Positions 4,590-52,403 of a stretch of DNA of 64,000 bases are shown in pieces; positions within the stretch are counted from its first letter, which is position 1; each line of letters starts with the position of its first letter. Below the pieces are notes generated by a model that ran no database searches, had not been told where the DNA came from, and was given only the letters and a program-made list of their open reading frames with translations. The DNA comes from Minisyncoccota bacterium (GTDB taxonomy: Bacteria > Patescibacteriota > Minisyncoccia > Phycocordibacterales > UBA9973), in contig JBAZYS010000001.1 of the NCBI GenBank assembly GCA_041659205.1, forward strand, positions 123,166 through 187,165, in the 5' to 3' direction. The translations under genes were made by a program, and so were the position numbers.

Positions 4590-4643
4590 TTATTTTTAAT
4601 TATTATTAACATTTATATTATTATCAGTAGGGAAATTAAATAC

Positions 4644-7600: not shown

Positions 7601-9350
7601 CACTAAGACAGAGGCAGCACTGAGTGGATATTTAAATCCAAATGGTCTTACTGATATGGTTCGTTATTTTGAATGGGGAACATCTGCATCAAGTTTAAGT
7701 AATCAAACTACTCACTATAATCATGGTGCGACAGCAGACGGCTTTTCCGAAAATATTTCTGGTCTTACATCTAATACTCCATATTATTTCCGCGCGGTAG
7801 CAGAGAATTCAAGTGGTACAATTTATGGAACTGTTCTTCCGTTTATTACAGATTCAGATGTTGTAGATTTACAAAATCCTCCTGCTCCCGTAGTTGCAAT
7901 TGCAGCTTCACCAACATTGGTTGCTGCGGGTGATACTTCAGAGATTACTTGGACAACTGCAAACGTTACTCAGGGTTGTGTTTCTTCAGGTGGTTGGTCT
8001 GGAACGAGAGCAGATTCAGGTACACATACTACAATTCCTCTTTCTTCCGGAGAACATACATTTACTCTTACATGTACGGGTGGTCAAAATAGAACTGGAA
8101 GTGCAAGTGTCTTAGTAACAGCAGAATCTCTTGTTGGTCCTGGTGGTACGGGTGGTGGAGGCTCTGGTGGGGGGAATGGAGGTTCTGATACGAACAGCGG
8201 CGGTGGAGGTTTTGGTACTGGAGGAAGTGCGAGTGGTGGTGCAGGTAGTACAGGCACTAGCGGAGGTACAGGTGGGGGAAATACTATTACGGAAGCGATT
8301 GGGAATACATTGTCAGAAATTCTTGCTCCTGTTATTACGCCTGAAGTTAAGAAAATAATTACTACAACTAGAAAAAATATTGCTGAGTATTCAGACACAC
8401 CAGCTGGGGCTGTTACCACGACGACCGTCACCGCTCTCGGTGCAGGAGGAGGAAGTGCCATTGCGCTTGTTTCCGCAGGTGGAACCGTTACTTCTCTAGC
8501 AGATATTCCACTGCTTGCATTACGCTTATGGAGCATGTTGCTCGTGTCTCTGGGACTAAGAAAGAAACGTGCACCTTGGGGAACAGTTTATGATAGTGTC
8601 ACAAAACAACCACTTGATCCAGTGTATGTAATTTTAAATGATCAAGCAGGAAAAGAAATTAAAACAGCAATCACTGACCTAGATGGGCGTTTCGGTTTTC
8701 TTGTACCACCTGGTTCTTACCAAATCACAACGAAGAAAACAAATTACCAAGCTCCATCAACCAAACTTGCTGGTAAAAACAGTGATGAGCTTTATGATAA
8801 TTTGTATTTCGGTGGGGAAGTTGTTCTAGGAGAGGATGCAGTTATCACAAAAAATATTCCGATGGACCCACTTGCTTTCGACTGGAACGAATTTGCAAAA
8901 CGTGATAAAAAACTCATGACTTTCTATTCTAAAAATACTCGCATTCTTTCCATTGTTCTGAACGCTCTCTTTTACGTTGGGCTATTGTCAGTTATTATTC
9001 TTTTTATTGCAAAACCAGATAAGCTTAACCTTGCAATACTTATAGTTTACGGTATTCTTCTTGTTCTTCATTTACTAGGATTTAAACCTAAAACCTTCGG
9101 TACAATTATTGACACTGCAACAAAAGAGCCTCTATCCTTCGCTGTTGTTCGTGTCTTTAGAAAAGGTTTTCCTCAAGAACTCTTCCATCGTGTGGCAGAT
9201 AAATATGGACACTATTATTGTTTACTCGCGAAAGGTGAATATTATGTCACTATCGACAAAAAGAATGTAGATGAATCTTATACCACTATCTTTACTTCAG
9301 AATTAATTAATGCAAAAAAAGGAATTATTAACGAGAACTTCACTGTGTAA
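4644..9350 (+). CDS. Large multi-module membrane/surface protein of 1568 aa. It has an N-terminal signal/TM segment, Cys-rich repeats, three ~95-aa modules ending TYTYTLTCTGG, three FN3-like modules with a RYFEWGTS motif, a Gly-rich linker, several TM helices, and two carboxypeptidase-regulatory-like (CarboxypepD_reg-type) beta-sandwich domains.
   Basis: The ORF has internal triplicated modules (PPAPVITISA...TCTGGLG x3; TDTTRYFEWGTSALSLSNQTTH...YYFRAVA x3). A low-complexity GPGGTGGGGSGGGNGG stretch lies at about 8140-8290. Hydrophobic helices lie at about 8490-8560 and 8950-9090. WGTVYDSVTKQPLDPVYVILNDQAGKEIKTAITDLDGRFGF matches the CarboxypepD_reg pattern. The stop overlaps the next start (TAATG). 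Confidence 0.7.
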   Translation: MKYKSYKIIILAVLVIGFLFMSRAFVSAVALDFRAESNPTLTSGPIYAGSSASFKAQIGGTYSTASLVPSFWRLAWTTNSADYNNTPQPGNSWTITQYSSSPSTSNLDSSVASSRYIYSSPIPFSQPNSSGYRYLIMGCVNGTSPVNPYSNANGPDYTSYVGPMNGVTNGETNTLDNCTFWTSLNVNAGCTNGANNPPSCNACTAPLTWDGNNCTLPVMSGTLTPANSTCTIASGASKCSRVLTWTTANPVGTSAVTNGSGATPNPSASSNNTFQTFFIPYNNGTPITFYLYNNAVNLATATVTPVCVNGTAWDGSKCQTIPTPVNGVCGATHYVCTVGTSASNVSSTYAWNWTCNGSGGGLDAFCKENKPAMSGTLTPATSSCTIALGASTCIKLLTWTTTNPVGTSAVTNGNGATPNPSPSANNSSKTFTIPYGSGAGTTFYLYNNAVNLATANVTPSCATGSTWNGSICISNTCDNGASNYPTCTNCPASQVLNNATATCVPPLSISLGSTNYSATLPNHTISGIYTLTNGTSSNTTCRLLDGSGTPLTTYAPCTGSISVVAPSSAGSYGYSIQAFKASTGETKVSNAFTVNIIIPFATPPAPVITISANPAVITSGGTSTISWSALNVTQGCTASGAWSGAQQEIGTIGTGALTTGTYTYTLTCTGGLGRSGSGSATVTVNPVVVTSCTNGTNNPPACNICTGAFSWNGSTCVANPVIGTFSSTLNTGNLPGSFSEIISNLSKNTTYYFRAVAQNSQGTSNGQTLSFTTLDTPPALVLPSVTTESATAVANTSATFNGNVDPNGTTDTTRYFEWGTSALSLSNQTTHTSQGPTLGTFSDTVSSFAKDTTYYFRAVATNSNGTVYGQVSSFKTTNVIDLEIPLAPVVTISASPKTVVVDGTSVITYTVKNVTQGCVKTGDWSGATEGSGTYTTDALPAGLYTYTLTCTGGLGITGSGSVAVTSREKVPNVLAPTVTTSSVGSITKTEAALSGYLNPNGLTDMVRYFEWGTSASSLSNQTTHYNHGATADGFSENISGLTSNTPYYFRAVAENSSGTIYGTVLPFITDSDVVDLQNPPAPVVAIAASPTLVAAGDTSEITWTTANVTQGCVSSGGWSGTRADSGTHTTIPLSSGEHTFTLTCTGGQNRTGSASVLVTAESLVGPGGTGGGGSGGGNGGSDTNSGGGGFGTGGSASGGAGSTGTSGGTGGGNTITEAIGNTLSEILAPVITPEVKKIITTTRKNIAEYSDTPAGAVTTTTVTALGAGGGSAIALVSAGGTVTSLADIPLLALRLWSMLLVSLGLRKKRAPWGTVYDSVTKQPLDPVYVILNDQAGKEIKTAITDLDGRFGFLVPPGSYQITTKKTNYQAPSTKLAGKNSDELYDNLYFGGEVVLGEDAVITKNIPMDPLAFDWNEFAKRDKKLMTFYSKNTRILSIVLNALFYVGLLSVIILFIAKPDKLNLAILIVYGILLVLHLLGFKPKTFGTIIDTATKEPLSFAVVRVFRKGFPQELFHRVADKYGHYYCLLAKGEYYVTIDKKNVDESYTTIFTSELINAKKGIINENFTV

Positions 9351-12300
9351 TGAAAAGAGAAAATAAAAAAAAGGGAGGGCATGCTTCAATAAAATTTATT
9401 CTTACAACTTGTGCAATAATCTTTGTTGGTATGAGTGGACTTTTTCTCTATGGAAAATTTGTTCAAGCTGCACCTTTTACATTCGTTCAATCTTCATGGG
9501 CGGGTGGAATTACTGCAAATACAGCAGTTCATGCAAGTAACCAAACAGGGTGGACGGAATATTCTCTAAAGAATGATATGACTGCTGGAGGTACCTTGAC
9601 TCTTCCTGTTTCTAGTAAAAATTTTACGGATGATGGAGTGGTTACTACTATTGGAGGATTTGAGCCAATAATTAATGGATTTTTTAATGGGATAGATTCC
9701 GGTACAACTGTTTACGAAAATTTTGATAAGTCTGCTTATGTTGGGCTAGGCACCCCACTTTATTCTGTAGGTAACAATCCACAAGGCGTTGCTTTTGATG
9801 TCACAAATAATGCAACATGGGTGACAAATAGTGCTAGTAATACAGTTACAAAATTAGATGCTGCAACTGGGGCAGTTATTGGTACTTATGCTGTTGGAAA
9901 TAGTCCACGGGGTGTTGTTTTTGATATTACAAATAATGCAGTTTGGATAGCTAATAGTTTGGATAGTACAGTTACAAAATTAAACGCTGCAACTGGAGCA
10001 GTTATTGGTACATATTCGGCAGGGAATCCTCGAGGTATTGCTTTTGATGTTACAAACAATGCAGTGTGGGTGGTTGATGGACTAAATTTAGTTACAAAAT
10101 TAGATGCTACTACTGGTGCCACAATAGGTTCTTATGCTGTTGGTACAAATCCTTGGGAAGTAACGTTTGATATCACAAATAATGCAGTATGGGTAACAAA
10201 TTCTGATGATAATACAGTTTCAAAATTAGATGCTGTATCTGGTGCTAATATAGGAACTTATTCCACCGGGGGAATTTATCCGCTTGGTGTTGTTTTTGAT
10301 ATTACAAATAATGCAACATGGGTGACTAATGCCAACGATAATACTCTTACTAAATTAAATGCTTCTACTGGAGCTATTGTTGGTACTTATTCAACAGGAA
10401 TTAATCCAGGAGGTATTGATTATGATATTACAAGTAATGTTATTTGGGTTAGAGTTAGTGAAAAAAATAGTGTTGATAAATATAATGCTACTACTGGCGT
10501 TCGTATAAGTAGTTATACATTGAGCAGCAATAGGGGGTCTGCTTATCAAGGTGTTGCGTTTGATATTACAAATAATGCTGTATGGTCCGATATTTTTTTT
10601 GATAATAAAGTTAGTAAAATAGATGCAACTAGTTTGAGATATGTTAGTACTGGAATATTTACTGCTGATGTTGTTGATTATGGTGAATCTACGGTATTTA
10701 ACACTTTGTCATACGACAAATCAACACCCGTAGATACTACTTTAACAATAGATGTAAGAGCAGGAAATGTGGCAGTACCTGATGGTACTTGGACAGCATG
10801 GAGTACTAATATTACAAATGGGGGAGATATTAGCGTAATGAGCGGTAATCAATATATTCAATATCGGGCAAATTTTGCGACGACAAACACTGCAATCTCA
10901 CCCGTCCTTTATGATATAACTATTAGTTCTAATTATTGGACATCTGTAGATGATGGTACTCCCTCTACTCAAGGAGGATCTCTTCCTTCTGGTGGATTTT
11001 TTGCTGGAGGTACTAATTTAAACACGATAGTTTCTGGTTCTGGGGCTGGTGCGAGTGTTGTGCTTGGTGAGGCACCAAGTGTTCCGTATGGTGTGGGTAG
11101 TAATCCAGGTGGTATTGCTTTTGATGTTACAAATAATGCTTTATGGGTATTAAGAGGAGGTGTGAATATTGTAACAAAATTAAATGCAACCACTGGTGCA
11201 GTAATAGGTAATTATTCTTTGGTTGATTCCCCCGGGGGCATTGCTTTTGATGTTACAAATAATGCTATATGGGTAACAAATCAACTTATTAATTCTGTTA
11301 CAAAAATAAATGCAGCGACTGGTGCAATTATCGGTACATATAGTGCTGGTATTAGTGCAGGCCCGAATTATATTACATATGATATTACAAACAACGCAGT
11401 TTGGATTATCAATGGGGATAGCACTGTCTCAAAATTAAATGCTACTACTGGTGCACCAATTGGGGGTTTTATTATGATGGGCTCATTTGGAGTAGATACT
11501 GTTTACGATGTTACAAATAATGTGGTTTGGGTTGTTACTAATAATTCCACAACCTTAACAAAGATTAATGCTACCACTGGTGCATTAATTGGTAGTCCAA
11601 TTTCTGTTGGATTTACTATTGGTGGAATTGCTTTTGATGTTACTAATAACCTTTTGTGGGTTGAAAATTATTTCGCTGGAAGTGTTTATAGATATAATGC
11701 AACTACTAATATTGCTGTCGGGTCTCCTGTGCCAATTGGTGTTCATCCGCAAGGAATAGCATTCGATGTTAGTAATAATATGATCTGGGCTTCAAATCGA
11801 GGAAGTAATAATGTTTTTAAAATTGATGCTTCTACTGGTGTATTGGTGGGGATGTCTATTGCAGTAGGAATTTCACCAATGAATGTTGCTTTTGATATTA
11901 CAAATAATTCAGTTTGGGTGACAAACACTGGTGACACTACTGTCAGTAAAATAAATGCCATACCTGTTTACGCAGCTTCCGGTACCTTCACCTCCTCCAT
12001 CATCGATCTTGGAGCTCTTTCTACACTAAATACACTTTCATATAATGTTACGACTCCAATAAATACTAATATTACAATGGACATAAGAGGATCAGTAGAT
12101 AATATTACTTGGGGTGCTTGGGTTACGGGAGTGTCAAATGGAGGATCAGTAGCAGCCCTATCAGGGAACAGATATATACAATATAAAGCAAACTTAAGCA
12201 CTACAGATACAGCAGTAACTCCATCATTGGACGATGTTACTATCAGTTACTCCCAATATCAATCAAGTGGATCTCTTACATCTTCAGTTTTTGATTCAGC

Positions 12301-13030
12301 ATCAGCAGGAAATTTAATTGATAAACTAGCTTGGATAGATAGTGGAACAAGCGTAACAGAGACATTGAGTTTCCAAATTCGTTCTTCTCCTGATGGTTTT
12401 AGTTGGTCAGATTGGTGTGGCCCAACAGTTTTGTGTGATGGCACTAGTAATTTTCTTTCTGTAGACAATGGTGTAGCTTTTGTTTCAGGTCATCCACTTA
12501 AAACAGGAGGAAATGATAGATATTTTCAATATAAAGCCTTCCTTTTTTCAGGTGGATATTTAACGCCAACTCTTTCTTCGGTAACTATTACCTATGATGT
12601 CACTTCAGGTTCACCACCACCTCCATCCGGCGGCGGTTCATTTGCAAGTAGTCCTTCAGCTCTTACTGTGGCAGCATCATCTGTGGCAAACGTTAATGCA
12701 ATATTAAATGGAACAGTAAATTCAAACGGTATTGCTGGTACGACACGTTGGTTTGAGTGGGGGACATCTGCCCTTGGATTAATTAATCAAACGATCCATA
12801 TGCCTCACACAGATACTCCTTCTGGTACAACAGCGACATTATCATGGTCTGGTGTAAAAGGAGCGACAGAATGTAAATTAAATGGAGGACAATATGTAAA
12901 CAAGGTTGTGTCATGTGCGGGAGGAAGCATTACGACAGATGTTCTTACTGTAAATACAACTTATACCCTTACGGCTTCAAATGGGTTTGGACCGGATGTG
13001 ACGAAGAGTTTGAACGTGGTGTTACCCTAG
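9350..13030 (+). CDS. Giant secreted YVTN-family beta-propeller repeat protein, a paralog of the first gene. It has a signal/TM N-terminus, YVTN repeats, two NRYIQY(R/K)ANL domains and a C-terminal FN3-like module with RWFEWGT.
   Basis: It has the same architecture and repeat consensus as gene 1, and its N-terminal 35 aa are alignable to the upstream-extended frame of gene 1. Its ATG overlaps the previous stop, which suggests translational coupling. Confidence 0.75.
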   Translation: MKRENKKKGGHASIKFILTTCAIIFVGMSGLFLYGKFVQAAPFTFVQSSWAGGITANTAVHASNQTGWTEYSLKNDMTAGGTLTLPVSSKNFTDDGVVTTIGGFEPIINGFFNGIDSGTTVYENFDKSAYVGLGTPLYSVGNNPQGVAFDVTNNATWVTNSASNTVTKLDAATGAVIGTYAVGNSPRGVVFDITNNAVWIANSLDSTVTKLNAATGAVIGTYSAGNPRGIAFDVTNNAVWVVDGLNLVTKLDATTGATIGSYAVGTNPWEVTFDITNNAVWVTNSDDNTVSKLDAVSGANIGTYSTGGIYPLGVVFDITNNATWVTNANDNTLTKLNASTGAIVGTYSTGINPGGIDYDITSNVIWVRVSEKNSVDKYNATTGVRISSYTLSSNRGSAYQGVAFDITNNAVWSDIFFDNKVSKIDATSLRYVSTGIFTADVVDYGESTVFNTLSYDKSTPVDTTLTIDVRAGNVAVPDGTWTAWSTNITNGGDISVMSGNQYIQYRANFATTNTAISPVLYDITISSNYWTSVDDGTPSTQGGSLPSGGFFAGGTNLNTIVSGSGAGASVVLGEAPSVPYGVGSNPGGIAFDVTNNALWVLRGGVNIVTKLNATTGAVIGNYSLVDSPGGIAFDVTNNAIWVTNQLINSVTKINAATGAIIGTYSAGISAGPNYITYDITNNAVWIINGDSTVSKLNATTGAPIGGFIMMGSFGVDTVYDVTNNVVWVVTNNSTTLTKINATTGALIGSPISVGFTIGGIAFDVTNNLLWVENYFAGSVYRYNATTNIAVGSPVPIGVHPQGIAFDVSNNMIWASNRGSNNVFKIDASTGVLVGMSIAVGISPMNVAFDITNNSVWVTNTGDTTVSKINAIPVYAASGTFTSSIIDLGALSTLNTLSYNVTTPINTNITMDIRGSVDNITWGAWVTGVSNGGSVAALSGNRYIQYKANLSTTDTAVTPSLDDVTISYSQYQSSGSLTSSVFDSASAGNLIDKLAWIDSGTSVTETLSFQIRSSPDGFSWSDWCGPTVLCDGTSNFLSVDNGVAFVSGHPLKTGGNDRYFQYKAFLFSGGYLTPTLSSVTITYDVTSGSPPPPSGGGSFASSPSALTVAASSVANVNAILNGTVNSNGIAGTTRWFEWGTSALGLINQTIHMPHTDTPSGTTATLSWSGVKGATECKLNGGQYVNKVVSCAGGSITTDVLTVNTTYTLTASNGFGPDVTKSLNVVLP

Positions 13031-16498: not shown

Positions 16499-16570
16499 TC
16501 TGGGGTAGCTCAGCGGTAGAGCGGTCGCCTGTTAAGCGATTGGTCGTAGGTTCGATCCCTACCCCCAGAG
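16499..16570 (+). tRNA. tRNA-Asn (anticodon GTT).
   Basis: The cloverleaf has acceptor tctgggg/ccccaga, D-arm gctc-agcggta-gagc, anticodon loop ctgttaa and T-loop ttcgatc. Confidence 0.85.
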
Positions 16571-16839
16571 CATCGTAAAAACAATATTAAAATAGCCACC
16601 GCCCCTTTTGGGGCGACGGCTTTTTTGGTTTTCTTTTTGACCACATAGAGCGTGAGCCAAAAAGTAATGTCGGCTGTAAGACTTCCTAGAACAGAGCCAA
16701 TAGTTATACCGAAAGCTAGAGAGCTTAGGTAGATAAATAATGGGCGAAGAAAGAATACATCCAGGCAGTCTGCAATTCCTAGGGTCAGGGAGACCACTTT
16801 GATTGCTTCAAAGTAACCTCCGACCATTTCTAATTTCAT
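16510..16839 (-). pseudogene. Doubtful or degenerate ORF for a small hydrophobic peptide. Its frame runs through the terminator hairpin and the tRNA-Asn gene before reaching a stop.
   Basis: The N-terminal ~65 aa (MKLEMVGGYFEAIKVVSLTLGIADCLDVFFLRPLFIYLSSLAFGITIGSVLG..) are TM-like, but the C-terminal third overlaps tRNA-Asn. It overlaps the upstream ORF 16808..17017 out of frame, which suggests a frameshifted or decayed gene. Confidence 0.25.
16595..16627 (+). terminator. Intrinsic terminator after tRNA-Asn.
   Basis: The hairpin is gccaccgcccc-tttt-ggggcgacggc followed by tttttt. Confidence 0.6.
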
Positions 16840-17017
16840 GCCATATTAATAACCCCCATAAAGGAAGACTTTCAGCAATTGCCACAATGGGGGCACTGAA
16901 AGAAGGTGAAAGGGAAAGATTTCCCATGGCCCAGCCAGTAGTGGGGCCAAATACGTTTCCTAGAGCTTCTGCTTGCAGTATGGGGTGCCTGACGAGGCAC
17001 TTTAAGCTAATAGACAT
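16808..17017 (-). CDS. Small hypothetical membrane peptide (70 aa) with a strong Shine-Dalgarno site.
   Basis: The ATG at 17017 is preceded by AGGAGG (rc of 17024-17029) with a 6-nt spacer. The product has hydrophobic segments (PIVAIAESLPLWGLLIW). The locus is higher in GC than its surroundings. Confidence 0.35.
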   Translation of the reverse strand: MSISLKCLVRHPILQAEALGNVFGPTTGWAMGNLSLSPSFSAPIVAIAESLPLWGLLIWHEIRNGRRLL

Positions 17018-17099
17018 AAATAACCTCCTTAGATATTTTACTACAATTAAATAAAAAAAGTAGCAAGTTTTAGGCTCGCTACTCTTCTGCTGATGGATC

Positions 17100-17378
17100 C
17101 TATGATTTAATGCGAAGTTTGCGAAGAAACTCTTCATCTTCTTGTTGTTTCTTTTTAGTTAAGGATGCAGCTTTTTCTTTGCTCGCTTTTATGTCAGCCG
17201 ATTGGGCCAGATGATTTAGAGTCTCCCTTGAGGGTGTCCAAGAACAACCCTTTTTACAGTATGGACAGAAGGCAAAAAAACGACGTCCATCTTTTGCATT
17301 ATATTCAGCCCTGTTAACCGGTAGTTCTTCCTTGCAATATGGGCAAGGGATGTTTACTGCCCACCACTGGCTTTCCAT
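17100..17378 (-). CDS. Small zinc-ribbon protein (CPYC...CPYC) with a Lys/Glu-rich tail; it has a strong SD.
   Basis: Two CxxC pairs (CPYCKEE, CPYCKKGC) sit 22 aa apart. AAGGAGG lies 5 nt upstream of the ATG (rc of 17384-17389). Confidence 0.5.
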   Translation of the reverse strand: MESQWWAVNIPCPYCKEELPVNRAEYNAKDGRRFFAFCPYCKKGCSWTPSRETLNHLAQSADIKASKEKAASLTKKKQQEDEEFLRKLRIKS

Positions 17379-17486
17379 ATCGTCCTCCTTTCAAGGAACT
17401 AGGGTTATGTCGTAAGTATACCTATCTCTTCAAAAATTGCTATAATTAACAGTAGGGTAATTATTATTAACTTTTCATAAAAAAGT

Positions 17487-34982: not shown

Positions 34983-35046
34983 GGTACGGATTTTTTGAAG
35001 CTTAAAAAATCCTGAAATTCTCGGCTCGTCAGCCTCGAAACCCCGC
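34983..35046 (+). repeat. Left copy of a 64-bp inverted-repeat element. It contains an internal palindrome, ggattttttgaagcttaaaaaatcc.
   Basis: It is the reverse complement of 44735..44798 with 63/64 identity. It lies in the divergent lepB/pth promoter region. Confidence 0.85.
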
Positions 35047-35087
35047 AAAAACTATACTTTTAAGATTTTTTATTAAATGCGATAGTG

Positions 35088-35096
35088 TGTTATTAT
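35088..35096 (+). promoter_or_regulatory. Extended -10 TGtTATTAT 7 nt upstream of the pth ATG (leaderless).
   Basis: The context is gtgtgtTATTATatgaaatATG. Confidence 0.45.
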
Positions 35097-35103
35097 ATGA
35101 AAT

Positions 35104-35643
35104 ATGAAATTAGTTGTTGGTTTAGGAAATCCTGGGAAAGAGTATGAGAATACAAGGCATAATGCTGGACGGATTTTAGTGGGCTTAATTGAGATGAAAT
35201 TCGAAAAAGAGGGTGAAAAAAAGAAAATCAAATTTCTTACCCCTGATACTTTTATGAATAATTCTGGTAAAGCTGTTGCTCCTCTGATAAAAGCGAAAAA
35301 AGATTTGAAAGAGTTGATTGTAGTTTACGATGATATTGATTTGCCACTCGGGAAGATAAAAATTTCTTTTAATCGTTCTTCGGGGGGACATAATGGCCTT
35401 GCCTCTGTTATTAAGTCTGTAAAGAGTGAAGAATTTTTAAGAATAAGAATAGGCATCACGCCAGCCACAGCAAATGGTAGATTGAAAAAACCGAGAGGGG
35501 AGAAAGATGTTTTGAAATTTTTGCTTGGTGAATTTAGAAAACCAGAACTAGAAATACTGAAGAAATTATCTAAAAAAGTCGCTGATGCTGTTGAAACTAT
35601 CTTTGCTGAAGGTAAAGATAAAGCAATGAGTTTGTATAATTAA
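35104..35643 (+). CDS. pth: Peptidyl-tRNA hydrolase.
   Basis: MKLVVGLGNPGKEYENTRHNAG is the canonical Pth N-terminus, with the catalytic His in HNAG. Confidence 0.9.
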   Translation: MKLVVGLGNPGKEYENTRHNAGRILVGLIEMKFEKEGEKKKIKFLTPDTFMNNSGKAVAPLIKAKKDLKELIVVYDDIDLPLGKIKISFNRSSGGHNGLASVIKSVKSEEFLRIRIGITPATANGRLKKPRGEKDVLKFLLGEFRKPELEILKKLSKKVADAVETIFAEGKDKAMSLYN

Positions 35644-35648
35644 TCCTA

Positions 35649-35676
35649 TTGACTTTTTTGTAATATTATATATAAT
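35649..35676 (+). promoter_or_regulatory. Canonical promoter TTGACT-16-TATAAT upstream of the SD-bearing small ORF at 35699.
   Basis: ttgact lies at 35649-35654 and tataat at 35671-35676. AAAGGAGG lies at 35686-35693, 5 nt before the ATG. Confidence 0.45.
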
Positions 35677-35698
35677 AATAAGTTGAAAGGAGGCTCCT

Positions 35699-35941
35699 AT
35701 GCTTCTATGGTTGATGGTCGTCGTGCAGATGATCGTGTGGGGATGGTTCTCGTTTAATGGAGGCAAGCTGAGTGATCGAGCGTTCTTGGTGTTCACTCTC
35801 GGCATGCTTCTTGGACAGCTTGGTGCTGGGGTCGAAACCTATCATCTGGCTGCCTGGAGGGCCTTCGTTATCCAAGTTTACTTTTTCCTCTTCACAGCAC
35901 TCGGCGGGATTCAGCGTATCCGTCAAATGCGTAAGAGTTGA
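35699..35941 (+). CDS. Small (80 aa) GC-rich membrane protein of unknown function. It has a canonical promoter and a strong SD, and it is compositionally atypical for the region.
   Basis: GC content is about 52% against about 33% for the neighbours. It has two or three hydrophobic helices (MLLWLMVVVQMIVWGWFSF.., FLVFTLGMLLGQLGAGV, FVIQVYFFLFTALGG). A terminator-like hairpin follows at about 35957-35990. Confidence 0.45.
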   Translation: MLLWLMVVVQMIVWGWFSFNGGKLSDRAFLVFTLGMLLGQLGAGVETYHLAAWRAFVIQVYFFLFTALGGIQRIRQMRKS

Positions 35942-36015
35942 ACATCCGCCCGTGCAAGGAGATCGCTCCGAGCCGGGCGATCTTTTTTTATATATACAGA
36001 TCAAGTAATATTTTT

Positions 36016-39000
36016 CTAAATCTCTTTTACTGCTTCGATGATGATACTTTTTTCGCCATTCTTGAGAGAGACCTTTCCAGAAAGGGCAATACATTTTTCA
36101 GCTACTAATATATCTACGCAATCTTTAAAGATAGAAGGGAAGCAGACCGCTTCGATGGAATCAGTTAAGTCAGCAATTTTTAGGAAAGCCATGCGTTCGT
36201 TATTTTTTGTTACAACTTGTCTTGTATTTTCTATTATTCCAGCGATAGTTACAGGCATGCCATTGCCGAGTTCTTCTTTGATTTTTTTAATATTTATATC
36301 TCGTTTTTCAAGTTTCTCGCGTATGCGGTCGAGTGGATGTCCTGAAATATAGAGGCCGAGAAGCTCTTTTTCCCAAAGCAATTTTTCTGCTTGGTTTGCA
36401 GCTTTTCCTATTTGGAGTTTGAATTCAGGAGCTTTAATTGTAGATATTCCACCGAAGAGAGAAACTTGGTTTTCATTTTGTTTAGAGTTCTCGTGATTGT
36501 ATTCGAGCATTCCTTCAAGGTTTTGAAGTAGAACTCCTCTATCTTCCCAATCATCCATACAGCCAGACTTAATTAAAGCATCCATTGATTTCTTATTTAA
36601 ATTTTTATGTTTGATTCTGTCTAGAAAATTTGTAATTGAGGTAAATTTTCCATTAAGTTTTCTTTCGGCAATGATTGAGTCAGAGATATCTGTTCCTAGA
36701 TTTTTAATAGTATAAAATCCAAATCTAATTTTTTCACTTTTATTTTTATTATTTATTTCTGTATCTTTTTCATGTGGAAGACAAGTAAAGCCCCCATAAC
36801 TTTCATTAATGTTTGGAGGGAGAATCGGAATATTCATTTTTTTACATTCTTCGATTATCTCAGAAATCTTTTCTACATCGCCTGACTCAGCGGTGAGAAT
36901 TGCTGTCATATACTCCACAGGATAATGGGCTTTCATATAAGCAGTATTGTAGGCGACTTTACCATATGAAGCGGCATGTGCTTTGTTGAAACCATAAGCC
37001 TGGAAAGGTTCGAAGAGTTTCCAGAGTTTTTCGGCGAATTCAGGTGTCTGGCCATTGGTGATTATGCCTTTAGTAAATTTCTCTCTTTGGGCAGCCATTT
37101 CTTTCGGAATTTTTTTACCGACAGCTTTACGGAATTTATCCGCTTCTTCCCAGTTGTATCCAGCTAGATCTATTGCACAAAATAGTAGATCATCTTGGTA
37201 AACGATAAGCCCATAAGATTCACCGAGGAATTTTTTCATTCTTGGGTCTAAATATTTTACGAGTCTTGGGTTTTGTTTGCGTTTAATATATTCAGGTATT
37301 GACTCCATCGGGCCTGGACGATAAAGAGCGACCATAGCATTGATGTCGTGAATAGAAGTAGGTTTTAGTTCTTTTAAGTATCTCGTCATTCCACTACCAT
37401 TCAATTGAAATAAACCTTCTGTTTGGCCATTCGCTAAGAGTTCGAAAGTTTTCTTATCGTCAAGGGGGATACGATCTATGTCTATGTTTACGTTGTAGAA
37501 TTTTTTAACTAAATTTATTGCGTCAGAAAGAATTGCTAAATTTCTGATACCTAGAAAATCGAATTTAAGTAATCCTGCGTCTTCGGCACTATACATGTCG
37601 TACTGAGTAATTATTTTCCCCCCCTTGGGGTCTAGTTGAGTCGGCATATATTCATAGATTGGTCTAGGAGCGATGACGACTCCAGCCGCATGGACAGAGA
37701 TGTGTCTAACACAGCCCTCGAGCTTTTTTGCCAGGTCTATTATTTCTCGTGTGTCTTTTTCTTTTTCATATGCATCCTTTAACTCTGGGACAATTTCCAT
37801 CGCATGGTCTATAGTCATTGGCATTCCTTGAGAACCAAGTGGTATCATCTTTGAGATTCTGTCTCCAATAGTGTATGGGTGAGCGAGCGCTCGAGCGACG
37901 TCACGTACAGCACCCTTGGCCATCATTGTTCCGAAAGTTCCAATCTGTGCAACCTTGTCTTCGCCGTATTTACTTTTTACATATTCAATCATTTCATCGC
38001 GTCTGTTGTCGGCATAGTCCATGTCGATATCAGGTGGCGAAGGACGAAATGGGTTTAAGAATCTTTCGAAGGGAAGTTTGTATTCAATAGGATTTATATT
38101 TGTAATTCCTAAAAGGTAAGTAACCATTGATCCTGCGACTGAGCCTCTAATGGCACTTAAAATTCCGTTTTCTTTAGCAAAACGCAGAAGGTCACCCACA
38201 ACCAAGAAATATGGAGAATATCCTTTATCACAAATAACTTTTAGCTCATATTCTACTCTTTCCTTGATTTCGGGAGTTTCTTTTAACCCGAGTCTTTCAA
38301 AACCTGCATATGCAAGTTCACGAAGTTTTTCGTCGGGAGTTTTTCCTCCTTCTATTTTGAAATCAGGAAAAACCCAGCGACCAAGTTCTATTTCCACATC
38401 ACACATATCCGCAATTTTTGCAGTATTGGTCACAGCTTCCGGAGTATCTTTAAAAAGTTCTTTTGCCTTTTTTGTATCGATGAATGAATAATCATCATCT
38501 CCGAAAGAGAATTTATTTTCGTCTTTGATGTCAGAATTTGTTTGGATAGCGAGCAGAGTTTCATGCGCTTTGTTGTCATCGACACAAGGGTAGTGTGAAT
38601 CAATTGTAGCAACGAGTGGAATATTAAATTTCTTTCCAAGTTTAATAATTTCTGTTCGGACTTCTTCATCACCTGGCACGGTGCTGTGTTTCATTATTTC
38701 TAAGAAATAATTTTCCTTACCGAAAATTTCTTGATGTTCTATTATTATTTTTTCAGCAGACTCGATATTTTTATTAGCTAGCGCCCGAGATAATTCTCCT
38801 CCGAGGCAGCCAGAGAGAGCGATGATTCCTTCACCGTATGTTTTCAATATTTCTTTATCCATTCGTGGTTTATAATAAAAACCTTCTAGATTAGAAATAG
38901 TTACGAGTCGCATTAGGTTTTTATAACCAGTTAGATTTTTTGCAAGTAGGGTAAGGTGATATCTTTTATTATCTATTCCTGGGTCTTTGTTGAGTCTGCT

Positions 39001-40351: not shown

Positions 40352-40386
40352 AAAAAAGCCGCAGAGTGAATCGTACGGCTTTTGGG
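40352..40386 (+). terminator. Hairpin with a T-run after gap.
   Basis: The hairpin is aaaaaagccg-(14 nt loop)-cggcttttg. Confidence 0.45.
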
Positions 40387-40403: not shown

Positions 40404-40559
40404 CTACTTCGAGATTGTCTGCTCTTGTTTGGTGGGAGGTTTCGATGCTGGCATGTACTTCTTCGGGAAGTAGTACAGGAAAAGACATGCGGCGATAAAA
40501 AGGACCACCCCTACGAAAATGAGCTGCGCTTGAAATTCATCCTCTTCTTTAGTGTTCAT
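40404..40559 (-). CDS. Small (51 aa) single-TM peptide with a strong SD (AGGGAG 5 nt upstream). It is GC-richer than its surroundings and is not in the ORF track.
   Basis: The product is MNTKEEDEFQAQLIFVGVVLFIAACLFLYYFPKKYMPASKPPTKQEQTISK, read from the minus strand. The SD is rc of 40565-40570. Confidence 0.35.
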   Translation of the reverse strand: MNTKEEDEFQAQLIFVGVVLFIAACLFLYYFPKKYMPASKPPTKQEQTISK

Positions 40560-47372: not shown

Positions 47373-50300
47373 GTGAATAAAATGTTAAACAAAAAGACTT
47401 TTAGTTTATTTCTAAAAAAGTTGTTACTTTTAGGTTTTTCTGTGTTTGTAATTTTCTCATTTGCTACTCCTACTTTTGCATTTAATCCTTTTACATATAT
47501 TATCGATACTATAAGTAATTTTATAAATCCTCCAGCCCCTACAGTTCCTATCACTCCTCCTATCTCAAAGCCAGCAGTTAAATCGACAACTGTAAAAAAA
47601 GTTACACCTCCAGTTGTAGTTCCTCCTTCAGAGATAAATACACCACCAGTAAGAACAATAACAGTGCAAGGTCCCGCAGGTCCAAGAGGTCCAGCTGGTC
47701 CACAGGGTGCACAAGGTCCAGCCGGACCAGCAGGACAAACGATAATGTCTCAACCTTCTAGTTACACACCTATACCTGTCAGCTATGCAAATATCGGTAT
47801 TATTCAAGCTAACCCAGCGACCAACTTCGGTGGTAGTAGTATTTTTTCTGCGACAGATTTATCTTCAAGTCACTTCACTACCAATACTGCAAAAGTGACA
47901 GATCTAACTGTAACCGGGAGTTCAACCTTAGGAGCTTTAAATATTGTTGGAAATTCCACTCTCACGGGTAATTTAAATGTTACTGGAAATTCCATTCTTA
48001 CTGGAAACTTAAATGTAACTGGTGCAATCACTGGTTCAATTAACCCAAGTCTTACCCTCGGTTCGGTTTATTTTCAAGGAGCAAGTGGAATGACCGAAGA
48101 TAATGCAAACTTTTTTTATGATGAGACGAACCATAGATTAGGGTTGGGAACAGTTACCCCGACTTCTAAATTGGAAATAAATAGTACAGCAGCACCAACA
48201 GGTGCTGAGCTCATTACGAATGGAACATTTACTGGAGGTACAACGGGGTGGACGTTAGGAACTGACGTTGCTTATGGAACAAATAATGTCATAAGTACAT
48301 ATAATGGAGGTGATCCAAGTATTTCTACTACTTTTGATACAGTTTCAGGAAATACATATATTTTTACATTTGTAGTATCGAATGCGAATACTTCAGGACA
48401 AATATATTTTAGCAACAATACAAGTCCTTCTAGTAATATTTTTGTAAATGGAACATACAGTGTTATTTTTCAAGCTAATTTTACAGGTACAGATACTGTA
48501 AATTTTAATGATATTAGTTTTGTTGTCGGAGATACTTGGACAATTGATAATGTTTCGATAAAGCAAACAAATATATCTCCTGCGCTAAAAATTATTGGTT
48601 ATGATGGGGCTACTTGGTTTTCTTTGGGTTCAGATATATTAGGCAATATTGCGTTGGGTAGTTCAGCGCTTTCTTCTAATACTGTAGGTTATGGGAATAC
48701 AGCTACTGGATATCAATCTCTTTTTTCTAATACAACAGGACGTGACAATACAGCTTTAGGGAATAAAGCACTTTATTCTAACACTACAGGTATTAGAAAT
48801 ACAGCAATCGGACAGAATTCCTTAACTTTCAATACAACAGGTCAAGACAATACTGCAACAGGAAGGGAAACTTTAAAATATAACACAACAGGGAGGTATA
48901 ATACTGCAAATGGTTTGTATGCTCTTACTTTCAACACAACTGGTCAAAACAATACTGCAGTTGGTATTCATGCTCTTTATTCAAATACGATAGGTTCTAA
49001 CAATACTGCTAGTGGTAATTCTACGCTTAACTCAAATACTACTGGATATTACAATACTGCCCAGGGTTCCTTGGCCCTTTATGATTTAACTGGTGAGGCT
49101 GCTGTGACTGCTGGGTCATTTAATGTTGGAACAGAATACACAATTGAAACTTTAGGAGATACAGATTTTACTCTTGTTGGTGCTGGAATTAATGCTGTTG
49201 GAGAAATATTTACAGCTACCGATGTTGGTTCTGGTACAGGTACGGCTACTTTAAATACTGGAAATAACACTGCGCTTGGTTACAATACAGGAAGAGGAAT
49301 TGTTACCGGAATAAACAATACAATAATCGGAGCAAATGTTACGGGGCTTGATGCTGCTCTTTCTGGTAATATTATTATTGCTGACGGTCAAGGAAATAGA
49401 AGAATAAATGTGGATAGTTTAGGTAAAGTAGGTATCGGTACAACAACACCTACTGCTAAATTGGAAATAAGTGGTACAGCAACACCAACAGGTGCTGAGC
49501 TCATTACGAATGGAACATTTACAGGGAGCGCAGTTGGGTGGACATTAGGAACTGATGTTGTGTTTAACGCAGGGACTGATAATGTAACGAGTACTTATGC
49601 AGGTGGTGATCCAAATATTTCCACGACATTTGAAACTGTAGCAGGAAATACATATCTTCTTACTTTTACAGTCTCAAGTGCAAATGCTCCAATGTATTTT
49701 TTCCTTAGTAATTTCTTTAATTATTTTTCAGGTCCATTCGTAAATGGTACACATACTGTTGCTTTTCAGACTGATTTTACCGGGACAGAGACAATAAACT
49801 TTTCTAATTCCAATAATGTTGTAACTGATGCTTTTACGCTTGATGATGTTTCAATCAGACAAACAACCCTATTGTCTCCTGGTTTAAAAGTTATTGGTTA
49901 TGATGGGAATACATGGCTTTCTGTTGGTGGGGATATTTTAGGGAATACTGCGTTAGGTAATTCATCATTAACTTCTAACACCACGGGTAAAAATAATACT
50001 GCAAATGGTTTACGGGCCCTTTATTCTAATACTATTGGTGATTTTAATACTGCGAATGGTAAGGACGCCCTTTTTTCTAACACCGATGGTTCTGACAACA
50101 CAGCTACCGGTTTATCTGCTTTAAGATTTAATACTAATGGCTCCCAAAATACTGCCAATGGTGCGTATGCATTAAATTTTAATGATAGTGGTGGTGACAA
50201 TACTGCTAATGGTTTTGCTGCTCTCTATCGTAATACTGGAGGTGTTAATAACACCGCGAGTGGTGCTTCAGCCCTTTATTCAAATTTAGGTAGTGAAGTA

Positions 50301-52403
50301 TATCATTGGCAAACAGATTCTTATACATATACAGGTTCTTCTAACACAGCAAATGGTTCTACTGCTCTCTACTTAAATACTACAGGAAACAATAATACAG
50401 CAATTGGTGCAAATGCTCTTTCAGTAAATAGTGTTGGTTCTAGCAATGTTGCTTTGGGATATGCGGCTGGTTCATTCGAAACAGGCTCTAATGCTTTTTA
50501 TGTAAATAATATTCAACAAACTTCTTTATCTAATGATCAAAACTTTTCGCTTCTATATGGAAAATTTTCTGGAGTAGCTGGTTCTACGGTAGGTCAGCAA
50601 CTTGTAATTAACGGTAACGTTGGAATTGGGACACCAACGCCTAATAATCTTTTACAAGTAGCAGGTTTGATTGATTTTAATAATACTGATTTTGATACAA
50701 AGCTTGGATATCAGGCAGGAAATAATATTGTAGTTGGAGCTCAATATAATACTTTTGCTGGCTATCAGGCTGGATTATCTAGTGCAACGCTTAGTACGAA
50801 TGCGGCTGATTATAATAGTGCTTTTGGTTACCAAGCTTTATTTTCCAATACCACTGGTTTACTCAATACAACTATTGGTGCTTTTTCTCTTACTGCCAAT
50901 ACTTCTGGTATATCCAATACGGCAAGTGGCGTAAACTCGCTTTTAGCTAATACCACAGGTTCTTCCAACGTAGCTTATGGTAAAGATTCATTTAGAAATA
51001 ACACTACTGGTTCAAGCAATACTGTTATTGGTTATAATTCAGGATTAGGAATTACAACCGGTGATAACAATACGATTATTGGTGCCAACGTAGGTCAGCT
51101 TTTAGCTGGGCTTTCTAATAATATTATTATTGCTGACGGTCAAGGAAATAGAAGAATAAATGTAAATAGTGTAGGGAATGTCGGTATTGGTAATATAAAT
51201 TCAGCAACTCTTTTTTCCGTTACTCCTACTCAGTATAGTACAGGTACGGCTGGGCAATCTCTAACTACAATTACAGGCATAGGAACGACATTTACTTCTG
51301 CGATGGTGGGCTCACAGTTTGTTTTTGCTGACGGCACAAATGCAGGTACGATTACAGCATTTACTGATACGACCCATCTCACTGTTTCTACTTCCCAAAC
51401 AGTTTCATCATTTCAGGCTTTTAAAATTGGATATACTGGTTTACAAGTAGGGAGTACAGGAAATATCGGTATTGGAACGACGTCTCCATCCAACGTCCTT
51501 CATGTCACAGGGGCACCAGCTACTGGCACAGCAGTTGCGAGAATAGCAAATACTCTTGCAGGAACAACTCAAAATAATGGACTTTTAATTTTAGCCGGAA
51601 ATGACACAGGCGTAGCTGCTTCAGAATTAATTACTTTTCAGAGGCCTGATGCTACTGTTATCGGAAGTATTTCTCAAACTGCAGCTGCTGCAATTGCGTA
51701 TAACTCAGGTTCAGATCTACGAATTAAAGATAACATTGTACCTACAGTCTATGGTCTATCAGACTTAATGAAAATAAAAGTAGACGACTTTACTTTTATC
51801 AGTGATATAAACAAACAAAAGATGACAGGTTTCATCGCTCAGGAATTAAAAGATATTTATCCTGGAGCTGTTACCACTAACGGTGACAATGGTACAGATG
51901 CGCTTGCCCTTGGCATGACTCCATGGATGATAGATTATTCCAAGCTTACTCCGCTCATCGTGAAAGCAGTACAAGATTTAAATCTAAGCATAGATGCAGT
52001 TACAGGAACTGTCACTCCAGTTACTGGCTCACCAGCAGAAACTTTTATGACAGCATTCTTTAATAATATTTATTCCAAGGTAGGAGCATGGCTTGCAGAT
52101 GCAGGGAATAGTGTCACAGATATTTTCGCAAATACATTTCATGCTAAAGATAAATTGTGTATCAACAATACTTGTGTGACTGAAGCAGAACTGCAAGCAC
52201 TTTTACAAAATTATGGAACGTCGGCATCTACTCCTACTCCTGCACCCGTAGTTCCAACTTGTACAACTACTCAAACTTTGGTAAATAATGTTTGCGTGGA
52301 TTCTGCACCTGCACCTATGCCAGCCCCAGACCCAATTCCAGCACCGGCTCCTGACCCAGTTCCTGCTCCCACACCTGACCCTACTCCTGCCCCAGTTATT
52401 TAG
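47373..52403 (+). CDS. Giant (1676 aa) secreted collagen-like / tail-fibre-like protein with a C-terminal peptidase-S74 intramolecular-chaperone auto-processing domain.
   Basis: It has a signal peptide, a Pro-rich spacer and a collagen G-X-Y run (GPAGPRGPAGPQGAQGPAGPAGQ, about 47671-47736). NTA(T/N)G..AL..NTTG repeats are present. An internal ~400-aa duplicated lectin/CBM-like module (ELITNGTFTG..GWTLGTDV) occurs twice. The C-terminus SDLRIKDNIVP...MTGFIAQELKDIYPGAV (about 51705-52000) matches the S74 consensus S-D-x-R-x-K...GFIAQE. The protein ends in a Pro-rich tail. The track start at 47373 is GTG and the first ATG is at 47382. The extended -10 tgaTATAAT lies at 47352-47360. Confidence 0.75.
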   Translation: MNKMLNKKTFSLFLKKLLLLGFSVFVIFSFATPTFAFNPFTYIIDTISNFINPPAPTVPITPPISKPAVKSTTVKKVTPPVVVPPSEINTPPVRTITVQGPAGPRGPAGPQGAQGPAGPAGQTIMSQPSSYTPIPVSYANIGIIQANPATNFGGSSIFSATDLSSSHFTTNTAKVTDLTVTGSSTLGALNIVGNSTLTGNLNVTGNSILTGNLNVTGAITGSINPSLTLGSVYFQGASGMTEDNANFFYDETNHRLGLGTVTPTSKLEINSTAAPTGAELITNGTFTGGTTGWTLGTDVAYGTNNVISTYNGGDPSISTTFDTVSGNTYIFTFVVSNANTSGQIYFSNNTSPSSNIFVNGTYSVIFQANFTGTDTVNFNDISFVVGDTWTIDNVSIKQTNISPALKIIGYDGATWFSLGSDILGNIALGSSALSSNTVGYGNTATGYQSLFSNTTGRDNTALGNKALYSNTTGIRNTAIGQNSLTFNTTGQDNTATGRETLKYNTTGRYNTANGLYALTFNTTGQNNTAVGIHALYSNTIGSNNTASGNSTLNSNTTGYYNTAQGSLALYDLTGEAAVTAGSFNVGTEYTIETLGDTDFTLVGAGINAVGEIFTATDVGSGTGTATLNTGNNTALGYNTGRGIVTGINNTIIGANVTGLDAALSGNIIIADGQGNRRINVDSLGKVGIGTTTPTAKLEISGTATPTGAELITNGTFTGSAVGWTLGTDVVFNAGTDNVTSTYAGGDPNISTTFETVAGNTYLLTFTVSSANAPMYFFLSNFFNYFSGPFVNGTHTVAFQTDFTGTETINFSNSNNVVTDAFTLDDVSIRQTTLLSPGLKVIGYDGNTWLSVGGDILGNTALGNSSLTSNTTGKNNTANGLRALYSNTIGDFNTANGKDALFSNTDGSDNTATGLSALRFNTNGSQNTANGAYALNFNDSGGDNTANGFAALYRNTGGVNNTASGASALYSNLGSEVYHWQTDSYTYTGSSNTANGSTALYLNTTGNNNTAIGANALSVNSVGSSNVALGYAAGSFETGSNAFYVNNIQQTSLSNDQNFSLLYGKFSGVAGSTVGQQLVINGNVGIGTPTPNNLLQVAGLIDFNNTDFDTKLGYQAGNNIVVGAQYNTFAGYQAGLSSATLSTNAADYNSAFGYQALFSNTTGLLNTTIGAFSLTANTSGISNTASGVNSLLANTTGSSNVAYGKDSFRNNTTGSSNTVIGYNSGLGITTGDNNTIIGANVGQLLAGLSNNIIIADGQGNRRINVNSVGNVGIGNINSATLFSVTPTQYSTGTAGQSLTTITGIGTTFTSAMVGSQFVFADGTNAGTITAFTDTTHLTVSTSQTVSSFQAFKIGYTGLQVGSTGNIGIGTTSPSNVLHVTGAPATGTAVARIANTLAGTTQNNGLLILAGNDTGVAASELITFQRPDATVIGSISQTAAAAIAYNSGSDLRIKDNIVPTVYGLSDLMKIKVDDFTFISDINKQKMTGFIAQELKDIYPGAVTTNGDNGTDALALGMTPWMIDYSKLTPLIVKAVQDLNLSIDAVTGTVTPVTGSPAETFMTAFFNNIYSKVGAWLADAGNSVTDIFANTFHAKDKLCINNTCVTEAELQALLQNYGTSASTPTPAPVVPTCTTTQTLVNNVCVDSAPAPMPAPDPIPAPAPDPVPAPTPDPTPAPVI

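Follow-up and report, generated by a model that had tools for sequence, protein, structure and literature searches.

Tiny genomes and a reliance on other cells for metabolites characterize bacteria of the candidate phyla radiation (CPR; Patescibacteria), which are thought to exchange genes only sparingly. Small membrane proteins of several kinds are known: many bacterial membrane proteins of less than 100 amino acids (aa) act as accessory or regulatory subunits, small immunity proteins with three transmembrane (TM) helices and their own promoters exist for the E1-type pore-forming colicins, and class I holins have three TM helices, an N-out/C-in topology and a basic C-terminus. The SemiSWEETs are homodimers whose signature is a PQ motif in the first TM helix (PMC5972207). 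In PnuC, the three-TM units are parallel and N-out/C-in, and a free 'semiPnu' has only been hypothesized, the sequence record not tracing one (PMC7162841). Here, we analyse a stretch of 64 000 nt from a Minisyncoccota bacterium (contig JBAZYS010000001.1; 'the window', numbered from its first letter), in which an 80-aa three-TM protein is encoded on a small insert between pth and dnaE. We hold with high confidence that this is a real gene in a horizontally acquired cassette.

The insert spans positions 35644-36015 (372 bp). The TAA stop of pth (35641-35643) directly precedes it, and the stop codon of dnaE, which converges from the minus strand, occupies 36016-36018 on the other side. All signals of the insert are on the plus strand. 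A sigma-70-type promoter (35649-35676) consists of TTGACT (35649-35654), a 16-nt spacer and TATAAT (35671-35676), and its hexamers match 11 of the 12 consensus positions, with a predicted transcription start near 35683. The Shine-Dalgarno (SD) sequence AAAGGAGG (35686-35693) stands 5 nt ahead of the ATG at 35699 and marks one of only two AGGAGG-led real starts of open reading frames (ORFs) in the window. The coding sequence of the 80-aa protein (35699-35941, stop codon 35939-35941) is supported by homologs, by the ratio of nonsynonymous to synonymous substitution (dN/dS) and by an AlphaFold2 (AF2) model, and it is followed by an intrinsic-terminator-like GC-rich hairpin and T-run (35956-35990, the hairpin itself 35956-35987), located by a terminator scan. 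Thus, the insert is a self-contained single-gene expression unit with promoter, SD, coding sequence and terminator, and the four elements described in an earlier note on this DNA are all present where it had placed them. The same promoter, SD and terminator were found at two further loci, L002 and L006, in which the promoter hexamers are kept, the SD is identical and the segment 35942-35985 is nearly invariant. Promoter matches of at least 11/12 number four in the window versus 3.1 ± 1.7 in shuffles, no rarer than chance in such AT-rich DNA. Since the match score alone is not unusual, the credibility of the promoter comes from its position and from its conservation in three loci.

Presence or absence of the ORF at the pth-dnaE junction of relatives had been named beforehand, in the earlier note, as the refuting test of a foreign origin, and the gene proved not to be conserved there, some 35 relatives sharing the hisS-lepB-pth/dnaE synteny without it. 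A metagenome scan with the window Pth returned ∼30 loci with Pth 72-81% identical and hisS-lepB-pth synteny, none of which encodes the small protein, and the gene is also absent from L098-L102, where HisS is 90-94% identical. The junction of the closest relative found, L098 (HisS 94%, DnaE 95% and Pth 92% identical; GC content 36.8%), is empty, with 3 nt between the pth and dnaE stops. Many relatives have the two stops either overlapping at TTAA or separated by 3-15 nt, and those at 90-91% HisS identity have unrelated ORFs at the junction. By blastn, the cassette stretch was detected only in L002 (89.5% over 342 nt) and L006 (85% over 349 nt), and these carriers are more distant from the window (Pth 78%, HisS 85%) than many of the empty-site genomes.

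The junction, which corresponds to 35643/36016 in the window, was surveyed in L018-L049 and L098-L102 as well, and the cargo found there in other relatives is varied. It comprises a MazE/MazF pair (L033/L034), a nucleotidyltransferase with a second ORF (L041), a PaaX_M-domain protein (L024/L026), Y1_Tnp-like genes (L006, L019, L022 and L029), a GC-rich 113-bp insert containing a hairpin (L032) and unknown ORFs (L025 and L099-L102). The E-values were 3.7e-24 for MazF/PemK, 1e-14 for the nucleotidyltransferase and 2e-20 for the PaaX_M Cas2-like domain. Given this variety, the pth-dnaE junction of Nomurabacteria-like genomes is a hot spot that receives accessory DNA.

The composition of the gene is foreign to its surroundings. 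Its GC content is 51.0% (0.56, 0.38 and 0.59 at the three codon positions) versus 36.5% for the window, and its third-position value (GC3) of 0.59 lies 5.2 standard deviations above the 45 window ORF-genes (mean 0.266 ± 0.063). The contrast that the earlier note had pointed out is therefore real, although the neighbourhood, with genes at 34-38%, is less low in GC than the 33% it had claimed. The homologs described below have GC3 values of 0.29-0.38 in hosts of 38-42% GC and of 0.73-0.87 in hosts of 50-57% GC, so that outside this locus the gene's composition tracks that of its host. Since versions in AT-rich hosts have GC3 of 0.29-0.38, the protein sequence does not force a high GC content. 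The nearest non-syntenic homolog, L003, has 76% aa identity and a GC3 of 0.70 in a host of 52% GC, which suggests a higher-GC CPR donor pool for the cassette. L003, L004 and L005, all from higher-GC hosts, and the closest empty-site relative L098 come from one run series (SRR2238xxxx), and possible donors and recipients may co-occur in one environment.

Divergence tells the same story as presence and absence. The proportion of synonymous differences (pS) in the cassette is 0.37 between the window and L002 and 0.37-0.54 between carriers, versus 0.76-0.85 between carriers for the flanking pth, lepB and hisS; even the host genes of the window and L098, at 0.57-0.63, exceed the cassette value of 0.37 for the window and L002. 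When carriers are compared, nucleotide identity rises sharply at the junction, from 71-75% in the flanks to 85-89% in the cassette. A HisS tree groups the window with L025, and L002 with L021; neither L025 nor L021 has the cassette, and its distribution on the tree is patchy. Among singleton substitutions in the carrier trio, GC-to-AT changes number 27 versus 14, a mild signal of amelioration. By these comparisons, the cassette apparently moved among related lineages after their divergence, and in the window it was inserted exactly between the convergent pth and dnaE stops of a Candidatus Nomurabacteria/Paceibacterota-like (CPR) genome, at the hot spot; the host was placed in this group by the names of its HisS relatives, 86-91% identical. 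Absence from the syntenic relatives, foreign GC and lower divergence than the flanks together bear out the horizontal acquisition that had been proposed from the sequence.

Several observations weigh on the other side. The HisS tree, made by a simple distance method, is star-like. In the window insert there is no mobility gene, integrase, transposase, att-like repeat, tRNA or terminal repeats, and no recombination tracts were found in the flanks that would account for the same junction being occupied in three diverged lineages. The transcript folds better than its shuffles (z = -2.9), which allows for constraint at the nucleotide level. A single old insertion followed by many precise losses, with unusually strong nucleotide constraint, would be an alternative history, and is less parsimonious. 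Directly downstream of the cassette, L002 and L006 have a Y1 (IS200-like) transposase-type gene (Pfam 5.5e-7) that the window lacks. A second copy of the 3'-terminal 22 nt of this Y1_Tnp-like gene, stop codon included (ATCAAGGGTTCCCCTYGCTAAA), immediately precedes the dnaE stop in L006, which places the gene between direct repeats (372-393 and 1069-1090); L002 has one copy before its contig end (6283-6304), and neither the window nor any of 100 other loci contains the repeat. It was considered as an element terminus and rejected, being a duplicated 3' coding end of the Y1_Tnp-like gene.

Two other accounts of the island were weighed against acquisition of a protein gene. A native, vertically inherited gene, with its GC content set by amino-acid or expression constraints, would explain why all three carriers (the window, L002 and L006) have it at one position, after pth, and share its regulatory signals, but the absence from the syntenic relatives, including the closest one, the existence of AT-rich-host versions and the much lower divergence of the cassette relative to its flanks leave this account with very little probability. 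Alternatively, the island could be a non-coding structured RNA with promoter and terminator, its ORF a by-product of few stop codons. The island does stand out as GC-rich in an AT-rich genome, it is spanned by three open frames and its transcript has the favourable folding already noted. Moreover, 34% of shuffles of the GC-rich stretch contain an open frame of 80 codons or more, so the ORF alone is not significant and its reality rests on homologs. Seven homologous proteins in public data are 64-93% identical to the 80-aa protein, the differences between the DNAs of eight homologs number 547, 347 and 1322 at codon positions 1, 2 and 3, and dN/dS is 0.05-0.2 wherever dS is measurable. Because the differences are dominated by third positions and dN/dS is low, the ORF is, as judged by its substitution pattern, a real protein-coding gene under strong purifying selection. 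Frame and length are kept in at least 45 clusters, at identities down to ∼30%. No Rfam family matched the island: the E-value mode on 35000-36600 gave no match at E ≤ 1, the gathering mode on the whole window returned only five tRNAs, and a scan for tmRNA found none. The structured-RNA explanation is thus effectively ruled out by the coding substitution pattern, and we assign it a negligible probability.

The initiation signals of the cassette also differ from those of its host. In 15 of 40 window genes a -10 box ends 4-12 nt (mode 6) ahead of the start codon, versus 4 of 40 at a control offset; the distance is 7 nt for pth and 6 nt for dnaE, a leaderless arrangement. An upstream TG often accompanies these -10 boxes. 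An SD core of even 4 nt occurs at only 7 of the 45 window genes. From these counts the genome appears largely SD-poor and leaderless, the latter as had been claimed for the neighbours of the insert. The cassette's own promoter and strong SD would allow expression, probably constitutive, in this mostly leaderless host.

An exhaustive profile search of 1.84 billion cluster representatives gave 47 matches at E ≤ 0.001. Two of these, the long matches P0048 and P0053, are low-complexity repeat proteins and were discarded, leaving a small family of ∼45 clusters. Besides a few shorter partial matches, its true members are single-domain proteins of 73-120 aa. They occur mostly in CPR bacteria: the named carriers are metagenome-assembled genomes (MAGs) of Parcubacteria, Jorgensenbacteria and Saccharibacteria, together with a few MAGs labelled by their submitters as Gammaproteobacteria or Bdellovibrionales. 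Searches of Pfam and NCBIfam with the window protein, and of Pfam, PADLOC and PHROGs with 30 family members, gave nothing consistent: no PADLOC model matched any of the 30, matches to PHROGs were at noise level, and sequence-profile searches of the PDB returned chance matches only (2hiy, E = 0.066; DotF, E = 1.1). Searches of 2.9 million viral contigs, 50 697 phage genomes and 72 556 plasmids gave no relatives of the protein. The source annotations of the family members all read 'hypothetical protein'. These small membrane proteins form a newly noticed, uncharacterized family, borne here on a portable expression cassette. The gene occurs singly, in surroundings that vary from locus to locus, and usually has an SD and a terminator to itself; no conserved partner gene was found across the ∼15 contexts examined. 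Small multi-TM ORFs follow the family gene on the same strand at L004 (3821-3979) and L005 (337-663), at L010 (1616-2851) and at L011 (6304-6906); the L011 ORF has no Pfam match, and no partner is common across the loci.

The AF2 model contains three helices, at residues 2-23, 26-49 and 53-79, with a mean predicted local distance difference test score of 84, and the basic C-terminal tail follows. Two or three TM helices with a basic C-terminus had been anticipated from the sequence, and three are predicted. Conservation was counted in a 30-sequence family alignment. TM1 (35702-35767, plus strand, as are the others) has the near-invariant Q10 and the pair W14xW16. TM2 (35774-35845) has a glycine-rich face, G35xxxG39-Q40xG42xG44, followed by E46; faces of this type are typical of tight helix-helix packing. 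TM3 (35855-35935) carries Q59, F62, T66, G69 and R73. G39 is invariant, Q40 and Q10 are each present in 28/30 members and position 46 is E or D in 30/30, the near-invariant set being Q10, G22, F32, G39, Q40, E46, Q59, F62, T66, G69 and R73. W14, W16 and W53 are strongly conserved, and there is no conserved Asn. Each helix has one Gln, located 6-8 residues below its outer end. Counts of Lys plus Arg across the 30 members are high in loop 1 (2.6) and the C-tail (4.4) and low in the N-tail (0.6) and loop 2 (0.7), from which an N-out/C-in topology is predicted. Fold searches were uninformative, as the three-helix monomer resembles thousands of bundles.

The following model for the product is consistent with these features. 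The protein would insert in the cytoplasmic membrane N-out/C-in as three helices and probably form a homo-oligomer, packing via the glycine-rich face of TM2. Q10, Q40 and Q59, together with E46 and W14/W16/W53, would then form one polar and aromatic layer in the outer half of the membrane, and this layer would bind or conduct a small polar solute, as in a minimal transporter or channel of SemiSWEET style. Because the gene stands alone without a conserved partner, its product should act as a homo-oligomer or with a universal host component. A transporter or channel for small solutes is plausible cargo for auxotrophic CPR cells. We put this function forward tentatively, as the one that we prefer, though with less than even chances. 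The complete explanation, an acquired cassette at a hot spot with a minimal transporter or channel as its product, we judge slightly more probable than improbable.

Other functions must be weighed against a minimal transporter or channel. The protein could be an orphan protective or immunity-type membrane protein, acting against a pore-forming toxin, a phage or a competitor, made constitutively and exchanged among co-occurring CPR lineages. The patchy, horizontal spread and the strong stand-alone promoter and terminator fit this, as does the toxin-antitoxin or defence-like kind of the other hot-spot cargo (MazF/PemK, nucleotidyltransferase, PaaX_M). However, none of the 30 members matches PADLOC, the noise in PHROGs includes a single SieB match at E = 0.098, no toxin or bacteriocin gene adjoins in the ∼15 contexts, and buried polar residues are strongly conserved across several CPR phyla, which would be uncommon among the fast-evolving immunity proteins; this function is unlikely, although the hot-spot cargo makes it a reasonable rival. 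Unlikely to the same degree is that the protein, inactive by itself, binds and modulates a larger membrane protein (a transporter, sensor kinase or secretion/pilus machinery) as an accessory or regulatory subunit. Protein-protein interfaces could lie on its conserved helix faces, where residues are spaced i, i+4, i+7, but no partner gene is conserved alongside in any context. Because the gene moves by itself into hosts that had been without it, any partner would be a universal host protein.

A holin-like lysis protein or a membrane-depolarizing toxin peptide was also considered, since the three-TM, N-out/C-in protein with its highly basic C-terminal tail resembles class I holins, and weak Pfam matches were obtained to Phage_holin_3_6 in 3/30 members (best E = 0.015) and to Phage_holin_2 in 1/30 (E = 0.0044). 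These matches are inconsistent and appear to be at noise level, and the window protein itself is unmatched. The viral, phage and plasmid collections hold no relatives, there is no endolysin, antitoxin or antisense partner in the ∼15 contexts, a consensus promoter and strong SD are implausible for an unregulated lethal product, and dN/dS of 0.05-0.1 with near-invariant buried Gln, Glu and Thr across phyla is atypical of holins and type I toxins. A lytic or toxic product is accordingly very improbable. The earlier note had listed holin-like and toxin-like peptides and regulatory membrane peptides as relatives in kind; with no viral or plasmid relatives, no PADLOC match and no lysis or antitoxin partner, these suggestions gained no support. 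Finally, a specific form of the transporter model, in which the protein would be a free-standing three-TM protodomain related to PnuC-type vitamin and nucleoside transporters (a 'semiPnu'), active in uptake as a minimal homo-oligomer and passed horizontally on a ready-made expression cassette among metabolically dependent CPR bacteria, is improbable; it draws on the weak TM3 alignment given below, on the parallel N-out/C-in topology and on the conserved layer of buried Gln and Trp residues.

The few strong SDs seen in the window (35686 and 17389, and a weaker GGGAG at 40404-40559) fall in GC-richer islets. At 40404-40559 on the minus strand is a second small membrane-protein unit, a 51-aa single-TM ORF (MNTKEEDEFQAQLIFVGVVLFIAACLFLYYFPKKYMPASKPPTKQEQTISK) with the GGGAG SD 7 nt upstream and a terminator-like hairpin and T-run downstream, near 40358-40384. 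Its local GC content is ∼0.44-0.47 versus 0.365 for the window, its fold z-score is only -1.0 and it has no Rfam match; this unit may be another acquired SD-led cassette. At 16510-17378 (minus strand), beside tRNA-Asn (16499-16571), three ORFs of ∼100 aa have GC of 0.41-0.45 and GC3 of 0.35-0.46, well above the window mean. AGGAGG-ATG motifs occur there at 17389, the start of a 92-aa ORF, and at 17029, inside the next ORF, and none of the three ORFs has a Pfam match above threshold. The group may represent another foreign islet, sited beside a tRNA gene. Four huge ORFs (1461, 1568, 1226 and 1676 aa) at 204-13030 and 47373-52403, on the plus strand, have GC3 of 0.19-0.20, low even for this genome.

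The locus provides a clean, datable entry of a promoter-to-terminator cassette into a Nomurabacteria-like genome at a recurrent pth-dnaE hot spot. The genome is mostly leaderless and the cassette supplies it with canonical sigma-70 and SD signals, so the case lends itself to the study of how CPR bacteria express foreign genes. Its product belongs to a rare, strongly conserved family of three-helix membrane proteins. If the protein is a minimal transporter or channel, it would be a very small uptake device for CPR cells and an attractive structural and biophysical target; if it is of the immunity type, it would point to membrane-targeting antagonism among CPR bacteria. An accessory islet at a hot spot is a known kind of feature, and it is the small membrane-protein family that is newly noticed. 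As a whole, the case is a well-supported acquired gene, solid and not extraordinary.

Among known systems, the SemiSWEETs (MtN3_slv/PQ-loop clan) are the nearest in design. They too are three-TM proteins of ∼80-100 aa (73-120 aa in this family) encoded by a single stand-alone gene, with a conserved Gln buried in TM1 and conserved tryptophans, and both would need to oligomerize to form a pathway. In contrast to the PQ signature, the residue before Q10 is A, C, I, V, L, S or T, never Pro, in the 30 members. SemiSWEET homodimers form a central substrate pocket lined by Trp and Asn; the family has the conserved Trp residues and no conserved Asn. The window protein has no Pfam match at E ≤ 10 and PQ-loop was matched once among the 30 members (E = 0.021); MtN3_slv and PF04973 are not among the 25 listed of the 28 Pfam families in the 30-member scan. 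With the PQ motif absent in 30/30 and the Pfam models unmatched, membership of the SemiSWEETs was rejected.

The comparison with PnuC concerns one helix. TM3 and the C-tail (residues 50-78; AWGtfvvQiyFFxfTxxGxxxRxR) align to residues 65-93 of Escherichia coli PnuC (IQLYASLLLQVFFFAANIYGWYAWSRQ), which form the last helix of its first three-TM protodomain. Alignment of the family and PnuC profiles with hhalign gave a score of 26.7 (P = 5.5e-4, probability 30%) versus 10.5-11 for reversed controls, over one helix of 29-34 columns. The PnuC profile is shallow (effective number of sequences, Neff, 1), its homologs being only enterobacterial at 86-99% identity, and its use left the hhalign probability unimproved. 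PF04973 was not among the Pfam families listed in the HMMER scan of the members, and PDB profile searches did not find the PnuC structure. The family is likewise an N-out/C-in three-TM unit, but PnuC has 7-8 TMs in two fused protodomains, whereas the family members are single three-TM proteins of 73-120 aa. We regard the similarity as a weak lead, suggested by sequence comparison, rather than as membership.

With class I holins, the family shares topology and a charged C-terminal tail, but it differs in having no phage context, endolysin neighbour or viral/PHROG relatives, and in its strong purifying selection and constitutive signals. As a genomic feature, the cassette is closest to the single-gene accessory islets found at hot spots, with which it shares a precise site between conserved convergent genes, alternative cargo in relatives (toxin-antitoxin modules, transposase-like genes and unknown ORFs), foreign composition and a patchy distribution. 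It differs from them in that the window copy is without integrase, transposase, att-like repeat, tRNA and flank recombination tracts, and in that it brings a canonical promoter and SD into a mostly leaderless genome.

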